From a virus (lineage: Duplodnaviria; Caudoviricetes): a stretch of DNA of 43,276 nucleotides. Position 1 is the first letter of the stretch, and the number at the start of each line of letters is the position of its first letter. The DNA lies in IMG/VR virus record IMGVR_UViG_3300008255_000206, positions 1 through 43,276 of that record; one strand, 5' to 3'. The notes under the pieces were generated by a model. The model saw only the letters and a program-made list of their open reading frames with translations. It had not been told where the DNA came from and searched no databases. The translations under genes were made by a program, and so were the position numbers. Shown here in pieces: positions 29,635 through 41,865 of the stretch.

Positions 29635-29816
29635 TTCAGCTCTCCCAGATACTGCGCCTCGCAAAAGGCGGAACCAAGCAGGTTGAGCTTCACGTCATCC
29701 GACAACCAGCGGTCCGGTGTTTTGGAGTTTGATGCACACATTGCGCGCACCCTGAACTCGTTCTCCCCGACAGCTATCTTGCGAATGCCGTCGACAGTCA
29801 GCATGTAAATGAACAT
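29631..29816 (-). CDS. Hypothetical protein
   Basis: GGAGG RBS before MFIYML. Confidence 0.55.
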   Translation of the reverse strand: MFIYMLTVDGIRKIAVGENEFRVRAMCASNSKTPDRWLSDDVKLNLLGSAFCEAQYLGELK

Positions 29817-29817
29817 T

Positions 29818-30102
29818 TCAAACCTCCATGATTTGCACTGGCACAATTACGCAGTCAGATGCTTTGCGTGACTGGATCGGTTCGAGATGCAACGTCTCGT
29901 TAATCTCACCGAAATAGTTACTCACGTTGCGGTGCAGCCTGCCGGCGAGCCAAAAACGCAAGGCCATCTTTGCGGCCTTGCGTGAGGTGAACAAACGCGG
30001 CGGATGCGCTGCGGTAAACTCCATGTGAGTTCCTCCGCGACTTCCATTTGGGCGTGGCATATACCAGCCGGTTGAAAGCTGTTTGATTACGAAAAATGTC
30101 AT
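29818..30102 (-). CDS. Hypothetical protein, first gene after the ribozyme
   Basis: A-rich enhancer plus GGAG RBS. Confidence 0.65.
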   Translation of the reverse strand: MTFFVIKQLSTGWYMPRPNGSRGGTHMEFTAAHPPRLFTSRKAAKMALRFWLAGRLHRNVSNYFGEINETLHLEPIQSRKASDCVIVPVQIMEV

Positions 30103-30141
30103 TCCGTTCTCCGTTGTTGTTTCTTTCGAGACTTGTCTCGG

Positions 30142-30199
30142 TGGCAGTCATCATCAGGCGGGGAATGCCAATCCCCACAACGCCTTGCGGCGTTTCGAC
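30142..30199 (-). ncRNA. Type II hammerhead ribozyme with pseudoknot
   Basis: Minus-strand order: GUC, GAAA, CGCC-GCAA-GGCG, UU (cleavage), GUGGGGA-loop UUGGCAU-UCCCCGC, CUGAUGA, U, GAC, UGCCA. Both core motifs, three stems and a 5-bp loop I/tail pseudoknot are present. Confidence 0.88.
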
Positions 30200-30203
30200 G
30201 GCT

Positions 30204-30221
30204 TTACTCGTCGCTTCGCAT
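30204..30221 (-). CDS. Minigene / leader peptide MRSDE
   Basis: GGAGG Shine-Dalgarno 5 nt before ATG CGA AGC GAC GAG TAA. Confidence 0.5.
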   Translation of the reverse strand: MRSDE

Positions 30222-30270
30222 TTCAACCTCCCTTGTTGGCAATCGCCAGACACACTGGTCCCGTGCACCC

Positions 30271-30299
30271 ACGATACCATAAATTGATCCCCGGCACAA
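30271..30299 (-). promoter_or_regulatory. Sigma70-type early promoter
   Basis: TTGTGC-17 bp-TATCGT with an extended -10 TGn. Confidence 0.6.
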
Positions 30300-30325
30300 T
30301 CGCGGCATCAAGCCCCGTGGCACGG

Positions 30326-30630
30326 TCCGGTGTGCGGGTGTATGCGTCTGACACTCGTCGCTATGGTGGGGGATTGGCTAAATCGGACCGTTTTTCAATG
30401 TGCCGTTGTCACGGGTGCCGTTGGACCATATCGCCTCATATGTATGTGAGGGGGTGAGGGTGTTCCTAGAATGTTCCAAAAAAAAAAAAATTTATAAACT
30501 CATAAAAAACAACAACTCCGAGGTGGTATGGTTCATACACCGCGCGAACGGACCATATCGGAAACCGGGTCAATTTAGCCAATCCCCCACAATACACGCA
30601 ACTCTCAGGCGCATACGCCAACACACCGGA
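30326..30630. repeat. Long imperfect inverted repeat flanking an A13 tract (candidate origin)
   Basis: Arms 30326-30383 and 30573-30630; perfect 18-bp core GTGGGGGATTGGCTAAAT; internal direct repeat GGACCATATCG. Confidence 0.8.
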
Positions 30631-30652
30631 AACGGGGGCATTGCTGCCCCCG
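30627..30652 (-). terminator. Putative terminator
   Basis: CGGGGGCA-4 nt-TGCCCCCG followed by UUU, just after the stop of 30661-31221. Confidence 0.55.
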
Positions 30653-30660
30653 AGGTTGTA

Positions 30661-31221
30661 TCAGAGCTTGATATCAATCGCCATTGCCGCAAGCTCGGCT
30701 GCCGCTTTGGCTTCCGCCTCGAGTATGGTCTCGGCTTTGCGCACAATGGAGGCTTTCCAGCCGTCGTCCTGCTTGCCAAAGATCTCCCAAACAGCCGCGT
30801 CGCGTTCGCTCGGGGACATGTCTTTGTAACCTTCGACGTGGGGCTTGATCTGGTCGCGAACGATCGAGATGACCTTCTTGTCAACGGTCGAAAGCCCGAG
30901 CCCGCCGTTGCCGCGCTCTGCGCCCCAATCACCGGCTGCGAGTTGATCCGCAACCTTCTGCATCAGAGCCTCGCCGGTTTCCGCCACTTTCGGCCCGTTG
31001 GCGGCGATCCATTCCCGACGCTCAGCCGCCGTCAGGTTCTTCCATCCGTCATCGTTGCCGTATGCGACCTGTGCCGCACCAGCCGCCGCGTCGGCGATCT
31101 TTTGCTTCAGCCCGTGCAACGTGGCTTGCCTGATGATCTCGGGCGACAACGCCGAGGGAGTGATCGTGACGCTTTTGCCGCGCGACTCGACAACAAAAGT
31201 ATTGGTGAAGTTGATTTGCAT
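30661..31221 (-). CDS. First early gene, hypothetical helical protein
   Basis: GGAG RBS before MQINFT; strong codon bias; followed by a terminator-like hairpin. Confidence 0.8.
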   Translation of the reverse strand: MQINFTNTFVVESRGKSVTITPSALSPEIIRQATLHGLKQKIADAAAGAAQVAYGNDDGWKNLTAAERREWIAANGPKVAETGEALMQKVADQLAAGDWGAERGNGGLGLSTVDKKVISIVRDQIKPHVEGYKDMSPSERDAAVWEIFGKQDDGWKASIVRKAETILEAEAKAAAELAAMAIDIKL

Positions 31222-31377: not shown

Positions 31378-31460
31378 CAATTTTTCCCCGACTGCCCGTG
31401 CCTGCCCACGCAAGGCCACCCCCCGGTTCGCCGACACCCACCCCCCTCCCCTCTATAGAC

Positions 31461-31555
31461 CCCCCTCGCTAAATTTGTAGTTTCAAAACATGAGCCATAC
31501 TTTCTTTCCCCCTCGCTAAAAATGTAGCGCGAAGCGCTTGAGCCATACCTTTTCC
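31461..31555. repeat. Imperfect tandem repeat, two units of about 47 bp
   Basis: CCCCCTCGCTAAA-nn-TGTAG-(10-11 nt)-TGAGCCATAC occurs twice; a third GAGCCATAC lies at 31619-31627. Confidence 0.8.
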
Positions 31556-31563
31556 GTGCCATA

Positions 31564-31592
31564 TTGACTCGAGCGTGCGAAGGAGGTAGAAT
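31564..31592 (+). promoter_or_regulatory. Sigma70-type promoter for the packaging/structural operon
   Basis: TTGACT-17 bp-TAGAAT. Confidence 0.75.
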
Positions 31593-39100: not shown

Positions 39101-41865
39101 CTGAACCGTTTGTTAAAGCAGCCTTTACTGGCGGTGTTCTTGCGCCGGCTTTCTATGGTCGCTCTGACATGGAGAAGTTTGACCTTGGTATCCGGCAAGG
39201 TTACAATTGGTGGGTGGATTATCGAGGCGGGATCAGTGTTCGACCGCCCCTTGAGTTTTGTGATTACATCAAAGAGGATGACAAGCGCGTTCGGCTCATG
39301 TCCTTCTCTTTCAACAATGACAGTGCAAACAATTATATTCTCATCTTTGGCGACCGTTACGTTGCCTTTGCTCGTGACGGAGCCTATATCACCGAAACCG
39401 CAAAAACAGCTACGATCGCGGCAGGTGTCAACACAACAGTTACTTCAGCTGCTCACGGTTTCTCAAACGGCGACTGGATTAAGCTCTACGGCACGGGATT
39501 GCCTTACGAAACGTTTGAGGTGAAATCCGTCACCGCCAATACTTTTCAGCTTACTACGCCGTTTGGCGTTCCGATGAACTCGGTAGGCTATTCGTTTTCT
39601 GGCACTTATTCTTTGGCTCGAATTTATATGCTGCCTAGCCCTTATTCGGCGGGCAGTCTTCTTCGCCTTACTACATCGCAATACCGTGATGTGCTCTATA
39701 TTACATCCAACTCTTATCCGCGAAAGAAACTCATTCGCACCTCAGACGCTTCTTGGGCCTTCGAGGACGTAGAGAACGTCCCCAGCATACCTGCGCCGGT
39801 TGCGACTGCCATTACCTCTTCTGTTGCAGGAACCGCTGGAGTTTGCTATGCAGTTACTGCCGTGGACTCAAACGGCGAAGAAAGCCTGTTGTCCAACATC
39901 ATGCTCAGCGAGACCGTTGTTTTCATGCCGACAACGGCAGGGGAAATAACCTTCACCTGGAACGCAGTTGCTGGTGCAATCAAATACCGAGTCTATCGCT
40001 CCCTCTTGACCATCGTGGGCGCCTCCATTACCAAAGGCGAAACCCTTGGTTATCTCGGAGAAACCTTGTCCACTTCATTTGTGGACACAAACATCATTCC
40101 TGATTTCACCAAAACTCCACCAACCTATGATGATCCGTTTGCCGACGGCGCTGTTCTTTATATCGACATTACAGCCGGAGGTTCTGGTTACGCGAAAACC
40201 GGAACAACTGTCAACCTTAGCGGCGGAACAGGGTTCTCTGGTGAAGTAATTGTAGATGGAGGCGAAATCGTTGGCGTCAGAATTATCAATCCCGGAACTG
40301 GATACACCGGAGGTGCCGTTACTTTTTCTGGTGCCGGAACAGGAGCAACCGCCACTCTGTCCGCTTCGCCTGCATCGGGAAACAACCCAGCGGCCTCACT
40401 CCTCACGCAGCAGCGTCGTGTCTATGCTGGCACGTCAAACCTTCCCATGTCAATTTACGGTTCTCGTCCGCGCTTCCAGGACAATTTCAACTACGATTAT
40501 CTCGCAGTAGCAACTGATCCGTTTGATCTGTCGATTGACTCAGAAGAGCTGACGCCGATCAAGCACCTTATGCCGGTTGATCTGGGCTTCATGGTGTTTA
40601 CTGGCGGCGCAGTCCACCAAGTGCTGGGCGCAAACGATCAATCTATAAACGCAGACAACGCGACGCAGCGGCCTATCACAGATGATGGATGTGCAAACGT
40701 CGCTCCGCTTCGAGTTGGCGATCATATCATCTATGTCATTCGCGGATCAGCTGGGGTCAACAGTATTCAGCCAAGCAATCTTCGAAACTACTATGAACTC
40801 GCCGACCGCAGTTTGTTTTCCAACCATTACTTCACCGGGGAAAACCGCGTCATTGCCTGGGCTTTTGCAAAGGTGCCTTTCAGGCAGGCTTGGGTGGTTC
40901 GCCAGGACGGCACGATGCTGTCTTGCACCTACGTCCCCGATCAAAACGTCTATGCCTGGACTGATCATGGCACCTTGGGGTTTGCTCACTCTGTGGCAAC
41001 CGCAATCGAAGCCAATGTAAACACTGTCTACTTTGTTGTCGAGCGAACTGTTAACGGCGTGGTGAAAAAGTTCTTCGAGCGGATGGACAGCTACATCATC
41101 AACTCAGAAGAAGACATGGCTGCAGTTGATGCTTATACAGAAACGTCGTTGACTCCTGGCGCCGGAACGATTTCGGTCAGCGCCTCTACCGGAACAGGCG
41201 TGACTATCACTTCAGCTGATGCGCCGTTTACCGCTGATATGGTGGACAAGCATCTTCGAGTCAATCACGGGCGGATCAAGATAACAGCTTATGTTGATGC
41301 CAACAATCTCGTTGGAGATGTTGAGTTGCCCTTGACTCAGCTTTATCCCGAGACTCAATTGCCAATTGCTTCTTCTCAATGGACAATTGATCCCCTTGTT
41401 GAAGAGGTTACGGGCCTGGGGCACCTTGAGGGCCTGACTGTAAGTTTGGTCGCCGACGGCGCACAACAGCCTGATGTGGTTGTGACTGACGGAGTGGCTG
41501 CACTCACACAACCCGCATCGCATGTTGTTGTCGGGCTCAACTACACCGCGCTGTTTGAAACCCTGCCGCTTTACAGCACCTCGCAAGTAATTATCGACAA
41601 GAAAAAGCGAGTTGTTTCTGCCAGTGCTCGGTTGCTCAATGCGCGCGGATTGCAAGCAGCTAGCGGCGGCAGCGACCGGTTTTATGATATAAAAATCAGA
41701 ACCTTCGAGCCTTTTAATGCTCCGCCAATGAGGGCCAACGGGATTTATGAGTTCCACGTAACTGGCAACTTCATGGAAGATGCTACCTTTATGCTTCGCA
41801 AAAACGGCCCTTTTAAAGCGACTGTCTCTGGCTTTGTCCTTGATGTGGAGCCCGGCCTTGATTAG
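39097..41865 (+). CDS. Tail nozzle (tubular protein B-like)
   Basis: FTGGVLAP..YGRSD start, beta-propeller-like body, AWTDH and HLEG.TV..VADG motifs. Confidence 0.85.
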   Translation: MTEPFVKAAFTGGVLAPAFYGRSDMEKFDLGIRQGYNWWVDYRGGISVRPPLEFCDYIKEDDKRVRLMSFSFNNDSANNYILIFGDRYVAFARDGAYITETAKTATIAAGVNTTVTSAAHGFSNGDWIKLYGTGLPYETFEVKSVTANTFQLTTPFGVPMNSVGYSFSGTYSLARIYMLPSPYSAGSLLRLTTSQYRDVLYITSNSYPRKKLIRTSDASWAFEDVENVPSIPAPVATAITSSVAGTAGVCYAVTAVDSNGEESLLSNIMLSETVVFMPTTAGEITFTWNAVAGAIKYRVYRSLLTIVGASITKGETLGYLGETLSTSFVDTNIIPDFTKTPPTYDDPFADGAVLYIDITAGGSGYAKTGTTVNLSGGTGFSGEVIVDGGEIVGVRIINPGTGYTGGAVTFSGAGTGATATLSASPASGNNPAASLLTQQRRVYAGTSNLPMSIYGSRPRFQDNFNYDYLAVATDPFDLSIDSEELTPIKHLMPVDLGFMVFTGGAVHQVLGANDQSINADNATQRPITDDGCANVAPLRVGDHIIYVIRGSAGVNSIQPSNLRNYYELADRSLFSNHYFTGENRVIAWAFAKVPFRQAWVVRQDGTMLSCTYVPDQNVYAWTDHGTLGFAHSVATAIEANVNTVYFVVERTVNGVVKKFFERMDSYIINSEEDMAAVDAYTETSLTPGAGTISVSASTGTGVTITSADAPFTADMVDKHLRVNHGRIKITAYVDANNLVGDVELPLTQLYPETQLPIASSQWTIDPLVEEVTGLGHLEGLTVSLVADGAQQPDVVVTDGVAALTQPASHVVVGLNYTALFETLPLYSTSQVIIDKKKRVVSASARLLNARGLQAASGGSDRFYDIKIRTFEPFNAPPMRANGIYEFHVTGNFMEDATFMLRKNGPFKATVSGFVLDVEPGLD

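Follow-up and report, generated by a model that had tools for sequence, protein, structure and literature searches.

The window, by which we mean the whole stretch of 43,276 nucleotides analysed here, is a 43-kb virus record with podophage gene content. The terminase, head-tail adaptor, major head, tail and internal virion genes lie on the plus strand, and the minus strand carries a split DNA polymerase, a primase, a helicase and many small open reading frames (ORFs) of no assigned function. These small minus-strand ORFs form a block, and at its head stand a hammerhead ribozyme and a five-codon minigene. They occupy a non-coding gap that runs from 30661, where an early gene ends, to the ORF start at 30102. 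The features of this gap, in the order in which the minus strand is read, are the following.

30326-30402 and 30554-30630, no strand assigned: arms of a 77-nt inverted repeat, upstream of the ribozyme
30271..30299, minus strand: possible sigma-70 promoter, a weak match to a relaxed regular expression (TTGTGC 30299-30294, 17-nt spacer, TG-extended TATCGT 30276-30271)
30226..30234, minus strand: Shine-Dalgarno (SD) sequence AAGGGAGGU, -12.2 kcal/mol, of the same style as the start at 29816
30204..30221, minus strand: minigene of five codons, MRSDE, plus TAA (ATG 30221-30219, TAA 30206-30204)
30196..30213, minus strand: alternative hairpin, CGACG 30213-30209 with CGUCG 30200-30196 and two more pairs, which excludes stem II
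30142..30199, minus strand: type II hammerhead, by core, stems and model score
30199-97 (GUC) and 30149-47 (GAC), minus strand: stem II, 3 bp, open
30196-94, minus strand: G12-A14
30193-89 and 30184-80, minus strand: stem III, closed by a GCAA loop
30181-30179, minus strand: GUU cleavage triplet, with the predicted cut between 30179 and 30178
30178-72 and 30164-58, minus strand: stem I, 7 bp, loop-closed
30170-30166 (loop I, UGGCA) and 30146-30142 (3' tail, UGCCA), minus strand: pseudoknot, 5 bp
30157-51, minus strand: CUGAUGA of the core, with an extra U at 30150
30127..30140, minus strand: small hairpin between the ribozyme and the next start
29818..30112, minus strand: GGAG (30112-30109) and the first downstream ORF (ATG 30102, 94 aa), with a stronger internal start at 30024

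The candidate promoter at 30299-30271, which was absent from a stricter promoter scan, would place a transcription start near 30264. No homologue of the downstream 94-aa ORF was found; the protein search returned only its own cluster. Contigs from other runs are identical to the window with zero differences over 30098-30285 in one (X5) and 30174-30422 in the other (X3), and thus the locus is not an assembly slip; both look like the same strain and are therefore uninformative on conservation.

The arms of the inverted repeat are 75% complementary with a long perfect core, and its A/T-rich centre carries, on the minus strand, a long run of T. Both strands fold alike (-165.5 and -161.4 kcal/mol, with 9 and 10 G-U pairs), indicating that the repeat may act at the DNA level, for example as an origin, an operator or a genome-end signal. 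One arm (30378-30369) is also a perfect 10-nt complement of ribozyme positions 30176-30167, which comprise the 5' strand and loop of stem I. The predicted probability of this pairing is 0.86-0.87 for transcripts starting at 30385-30420, about 0.27 for starts at 30500-30560, and falls to 0 in transcripts that contain both arms; if transcripts with the arm at 30378-30369 alone exist, the arm would provide a start-site-dependent anti-ribozyme pairing far stronger than the CGACG hairpin. A G-rich repeated stretch at 31440-31525, which lies between the first early gene and the terminase region and near a sigma-70-like promoter at 31564-31592 on the plus strand, is a candidate genome end or packaging site.

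The hammerhead and its class

Type II hammerheads of prophages and phages were described by Perreault et al. 2011 (PMC3088659) and are represented in Rfam as RF02276; that account covers the type II topology and the pseudoknot, and reports that the ribozymes cluster near small prophage genes and cleave while being transcribed in vitro. The ribozyme that the initial annotation had placed beside the minigene proved to be real. A model built from 21 other subfamily sequences, with the window excluded, scored it at 70.2 bits (E 1.9e-17), and the next-best match in the window reached 12.7 bits, so that the ribozyme is single-copy. The CUGANGA and GAAA core segments surround a three-way junction with A15.1-U16.1, stems I and III are loop-closed, and stem II is open, which is the type II topology. 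In an alignment of 22 subfamily sequences, 97.7% of the cells were paired and 12 of the 20 pairs had changed on both sides, with covariation in all seven stem I pairs and in four of the five stem III pairs. Loop I and the tail form a pseudoknot that agrees with the one given for type II in PMC3088659; its cells were 98% paired in the 22 sequences, yet they are nearly invariant and hence give no covariation support, and the subfamily search pattern itself selected for the pseudoknot. The GUU triplet conforms to the NUH rule and is counted among the active NUH sites (PMC3138052), although it is rare, being found in 3 of the 297 family members pooled below. The extra U after A9 is common to 145 of 155 family members, in a sample whose main search pattern had required it. 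From these features, the window copy is expected to cleave itself at the predicted bond. An alternative core using GAAA at 30224 was ruled out by inspection because its stem II would be weak and G-U paired.

The window gave no ribozyme match in Rfam, either at the gathering score over its whole length or at E values up to 10 within 29900-30750, and the copy does not reach the gathering threshold of RF02276 Hammerhead_II (37 bits). Among 20 sibling loci with the same core, 10 passed this threshold and 15 matched at E values up to 1. Judged by its sequence, the window ribozyme would thus be assigned to the type II structural class and not to the Rfam model RF02276. Like the type II ribozymes in PMC3088659, it has an open stem II, closed stems I and III, a CUGAUGA/GAAA core and a pseudoknot between loop I and the tail, and it sits between small phage genes, a setting for which processing of long transcripts was proposed there. 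Unlike them, it has an extra U between A9 and stem II, which is apparently not among the core variants that the paper describes, a GUU site, a UGGCA/UGCCA pseudoknot, a single copy, and a minigene rather than a full gene upstream.

Its closest counterparts form a UGGCA/UGCCA subfamily, which was reached through a blastn match in Rhizobium phage vB_RleA_TRX32-1 (MW023914, L001) and then by pattern scans, and which also includes five further loci (L202-L206) and Actinoplanes prophage regions (L358, L398, L399). The window copy shares with it the 7-bp stem I, the same loop and tail, the 3-bp stem II, the extra nucleotide after A9, and an SD and start behind the tail. However, the other members mostly follow full-length frames and are often clustered, and none has a minigene with a strong SD. 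Clusters of about ten same-subfamily hammerheads with repeated tails lie between small genes in L204 and L205, and clusters of three to five are similarly placed, also with repeated tails, in Actinoplanes genomes (L358, L398, L399). The type II hammerhead at about 39600-39665 of MW023914.1 is unannotated in the GenBank record; as this is a cultured phage, it is a tractable system for studies of the subfamily.

Two resemblances were seen in the leader. The motifs UGGCG and UGCCA within 30249-30237 resemble both pseudoknot strands and pair with each other, and UGGCG is predicted to be able to pair with the 3' tail of the ribozyme as well. The start of the minigene (30227-30213) resembles the 5' end of the ribozyme in 8 of 10 nucleotides and contains GCGAAGC, so it may possibly be a decayed partial duplication.

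The minigene and its counterparts in the family

The initial annotation had described a strong SD, five codons (MRSDE, 30221-30204) and only 4 nt between the minigene and the ribozyme, and all of these lie on the minus strand at exactly those positions. The SD core AAGGGAGG occupies 30234-30227. By anti-SD pairing energy, this start ranks third among the 1308 ATGs of the window and first on the early strand, far above chance, indicating that the minigene start is unlikely to be accidental. The TAA is followed by AGCC and then directly by the 5' strand of stem II, which puts the end of the stop codon 7 nt before G12. Upstream of the ATG, the frame continues without a stop for another 52 codons, but the SDs of the in-frame starts in that part are weaker. 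An in-frame stop 2-9 nt before G12 arose in 4.5% of shuffles, which is borderline. Since CGACG lies within codons 3-5, the locus has, as far as its letters can tell, the leader ORF with an initiation site overlapping a competing helix that a translation-gated switch would need.

The short distance between stop codon and ribozyme is not special to this locus. A core-pattern scan of 17 of the 64 parts of the viral collection, together with 20 ribozymes from other loci, gave 171 members that folded as hammerheads, and 155 were left after near-duplicate leaders had been removed. In 115 of these 155, the stop of a long frame falls 2-9 nt before G12, a long frame being one of 40 or more codons, or of 25 or more in truncated loci. 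Another 24 have only a short-frame stop at this distance and 16 have no stop there, so a terminating ribosome is not obligatory. Across 297 ribozymes, 217 such stops fell at 2-9 nt, against 30, 19 and 13 in the three 8-nt bins that follow. Termination beside the core is therefore normal in the family, and what is unusual in the window is an upstream gene of five codons. The tight spacing could result from genome compaction. In L324, type II hammerheads lie right behind tRNA-like sequences.

Short SD-led genes before hammerheads were sought in three scans that required an SD 12-44 nt upstream of the hammerhead pattern (the first two covering 28 and 44 of the 64 parts, the third being complete), and the pool with the other ribozymes amounted to 297 non-redundant sequences. 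Standalone starts were defined as canonical, SD-led, within 75 nt of the ribozyme and outside any frame of 60 codons or more. There were 13 of them, and six end 2-9 nt before G12, all in unrelated phage records: MQ in L216, MLPR in L248, MRPA in L598, and minigenes of 17, 9 and 11 codons in L505, L531 and L541. Shuffling between start and ribozyme predicts 1.5 such flush endings (p=0.0013), for filters that were chosen after the candidates had been seen. A stricter control that used the other two frames of the same starts was not significant (6 of 13 against 6 of 26, p=0.135), and counting frames of 40 codons as genes gave 5 of 9 against 3 of 18 (p=0.052). The other seven starts are not flush, and six of them read into the ribozyme, which argues against necessity and for a relic origin. 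The layout is rare, as all 13 starts came from the SD-selected scans and a comparable SD was found before none of the 155 unselected ribozymes.

In L248, the ribozyme stands between two other hammerheads, and the closest gene stops a good way upstream; L598 resembles it. A consensus promoter immediately precedes the L541 minigene, an arrangement similar to the one that we infer for the window. Several other loci combine SD-led starts with hammerheads in different ways. In L226 (L657), an SD-ATG stands right before the hammerhead and the same SD-containing hairpin is repeated upstream and downstream, so that the locus looks like an empty cassette. In L638 (L658), L249, L243 and L625, SD-led frames read into or through a type II hammerhead; that of L638 has 121 codons and is apparently in frame with the next gene, and the starts of L625 and L638 are coupled.

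The competing hairpin

The initial annotation held that CGACG in the minigene can pair with CGUCG at the ribozyme and so exclude the active fold. The hairpin is indeed predicted at these positions and is incompatible with stem II. Its energy is -5.5 to -6.8 kcal/mol, its probability in the secondary-structure ensemble is about 1.0, and it dominates for all 12 transcript starts tested from 30216 upward (P 0.97-1.0). In the nearest-neighbour ensemble, it makes the active fold costlier, with a penalty of 9.2 instead of 4.5 kcal/mol; these energies leave out the pseudoknot and the tertiary core, both of which favour the active fold.

The claim that this hairpin is a selected anti-ribozyme element did not survive. 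Of 400 shuffled leaders, 108 impose an equal penalty, as do 72 of 400 32-mers drawn at random from the window, and a local measure of occlusion gave p=0.28 in 1000 shuffles of the window leader. Among 176 family leaders, 22 occlude the core as strongly as the window's or more strongly, mostly ordinary coding ends, and the family as a whole is not enriched for anti-core hairpins (mean 1.65 kcal/mol, against 1.76 kcal/mol in shuffles). Five of the six analogous minigenes have no such hairpin (occlusion p of 0.84 in L216, 0.91 in L248, 0.47 in L598, 0.61 in L505 and 0.85 in L541), and L531 alone stands above its shuffles (p=0.02), indicating that what the loci share does not include the hairpin. 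With shuffles, family leaders and analogues all matching or lacking it, we rejected the hairpin as a selected element; it is neither above chance nor conserved with covariation. In L099, the leader forms an anti-core hairpin whose strength (10.3 kcal/mol) exceeds that of each of 60 shuffles, and on this modelling it would be a better candidate than the window for a selected blocking hairpin.

Possible roles of the minigene

The reading that we tentatively favour is that a known type of mRNA-processing ribozyme is preceded here by a placeholder minigene, which replaces the upstream gene and assists folding or sets timing. The ribozyme would cut the early mRNA at the head of the small early-gene block, freeing an 86-nt fragment with the minigene; the downstream mRNA would then start with a 5'-OH, and the stem I hairpin would cap this end. 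The minigene would stand in for the full gene that normally ends at this place, and its ribosomes would clear the leader before terminating at the distance from the core that is usual in the family. A ribosome loaded at the AUG would cover CGACG and the rest of the leader and so favour the active fold. When the initiation footprint was masked in the folding model, the hairpin was gone and the penalty on the active fold fell from 9.2 to 5.3 kcal/mol, below the 6.1 kcal/mol of the leaderless ribozyme; the SD itself is predicted to be 64% unpaired on average. A ribosome on the stop codon would briefly cover the 5' strand of stem II and G12, reaching 30199-30194 with what we take to be the position of its leading edge, and would leave stem I and the pseudoknot free, so that cutting would take place before its arrival or after its departure. 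Loading should therefore help and termination should delay, and the net effect is probably translation-assisted folding or timing rather than an on/off switch, with the CGACG hairpin incidental.

Parts of this scheme have parallels. Elongating ribosomes unfold mRNA structure, whereas an assembling 30S subunit does not, and the ribosomal footprint is about 30 nt (PMC4538824). In translational coupling, as treated in the same source, an upstream ribosome unfolds the mRNA and both frame and distance matter, and the mg2 minigene of axe-txe (PMC8708949) is likewise a very short ORF that changes the fate of a neighbouring mRNA in cis. However, as described in these papers, both act on a downstream start or a nuclease site and not on a ribozyme.

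Alternatively, the minigene could be a neutral relic, the orphaned start of a gene, before a ribozyme that cuts co-transcriptionally regardless of ribosomes. We regard this as nearly as likely as our favoured reading, which it does not exclude, because the minigene perhaps began as a relic and was later kept. Such a relic could arise if a cassette of stop codon, ribozyme and SD landed behind a start codon, or if a gene between two cassettes was deleted. A late arrival is suggested by related phages. A model search found no orthologous ribozyme in any of 28 related-phage loci. The upstream early protein led to 19 other loci, some with less than 1 kb of downstream DNA, and Rfam and descriptor searches found a ribozyme in none; Rfam also found none at eight terminase loci. 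These relatives are distant, with terminase identities of 71% or less, and some of the loci are short. Among 67 terminase-related loci, type II hammerheads with different pseudoknots are present in three (L170, L171 and L174, about 47% identical), and in five closer records pattern matches were no commoner than in the reversed control. A blastn search against annotated phages returned only the 35-nt ribozyme match in TRX32-1 and four low-complexity matches, and pattern scans of metagenomes and genomes yielded 70 loci; only 12 of them, including the record of the window itself, gave a hammerhead fold. With the ribozyme missing in related phages, the cassette looks like a late arrival in the lineage of the window.

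The relic explanation also draws on the apparent empty or interrupted cassettes, namely the SD-ATG before the ribozyme in L226 and the starts running into it in L625 and L638, on the non-significant frame control, and on the efficient cleavage, free of ribosomes, that was reported for clustered phage hammerheads upon in vitro transcription of native fragments of about 2 kb (PMC3088659). In addition, the minigene leader resembles the 3' tails of the subfamily, with TGCCA 15 nt before the ATG (family range 13-28). This resemblance is weak, however, as TGCCA is there in 3 of 80 control starts and 7 of 80 align equally well; at 4-9% in controls, we did not retain the leader as a relic ribozyme tail. 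Model and pattern scans of the window found no second or degenerate hammerhead, including a former cassette ahead of the minigene, and the SD is the strongest on the early strand; both results count against a relic. Moreover, the unrelated window, L248 and L598 converge on a near-consensus SD, four to five codons, TAA and a gap of 3-7 nt.

The dedicated switch that was originally proposed, in which the CGACG hairpin holds the ribozyme off until ribosomes melt it and thereby ties processing to host translation, now appears improbable. Its ribozyme, its strong start, the predicted removal of the hairpin by a ribosome and the recurrence of the layout in six records all stand, but the selected hairpin does not. 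The hairpin dominates the modelled ensemble and vanishes under the masked initiation footprint, and that of L531 exceeds its shuffles; on the other side are its chance-level strength (p=0.27-0.28), its scarcity among the analogues, the lack of family enrichment, and the 5-bp pseudoknot, which lies outside the model and favours the active fold. Researchers have tuned engineered ribozymes by upstream competing sequences that pair with the ribozyme and lower cleavage (PMC7192461), but the constructs described there are synthetic and eukaryotic and are not relieved by translation, and the competing hairpin of the window is not above chance. It is more improbable still that the arrangement is a brake or a near-inactive ribozyme, with most early mRNA left uncut because heavy loading from the strong SD holds a terminating ribosome over stem II and G12 or because the rare GUU is slow: a footprint of about 30 nt (PMC4538824) would indeed put a stop-codon ribosome over 30199-30194, but GUU is an active NUH site (PMC3138052), the stems, core and pseudoknot are all intact, and stops at this distance are normal in the family.

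The class and the setting of the ribozyme are known from earlier accounts (PMC3088659, PMC6765202, PMC6155905), and relative to what these describe, the new element would be a strong-SD minigene in the slot of the upstream gene. A literature search with few subscription papers and no supplements found no account of a natural phage hammerhead that has a minigene or stop codon set beside it, and the term "stop codon" is absent from the main text of PMC3088659. The cellular role of phage hammerheads is treated as an open question (PMC6765202, PMC6155905). The minigene makes a link to translation easy to probe, because its SD, AUG and stop can be changed without protein loss, and seven natural constructs are in hand, the window and its six analogues. 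If translation is irrelevant, the minigenes would be footprints of ribozyme cassettes moving into phage operons; if it matters, these loci would be ribozymes that are naturally coupled to ribosomes, and would offer synthetic biology a compact part. We further speculate, although we consider it rather unlikely, that phage type II hammerheads in general are serviced by ribosomes, being set flush to stop codons so that the ribosome times their folding and cutting, and that dedicated minigenes have repeatedly evolved to supply this ribosome where no gene ends at a suitable point. If true, this would amount to a natural translation-coupled ribozyme module that links phage mRNA processing to host translation.
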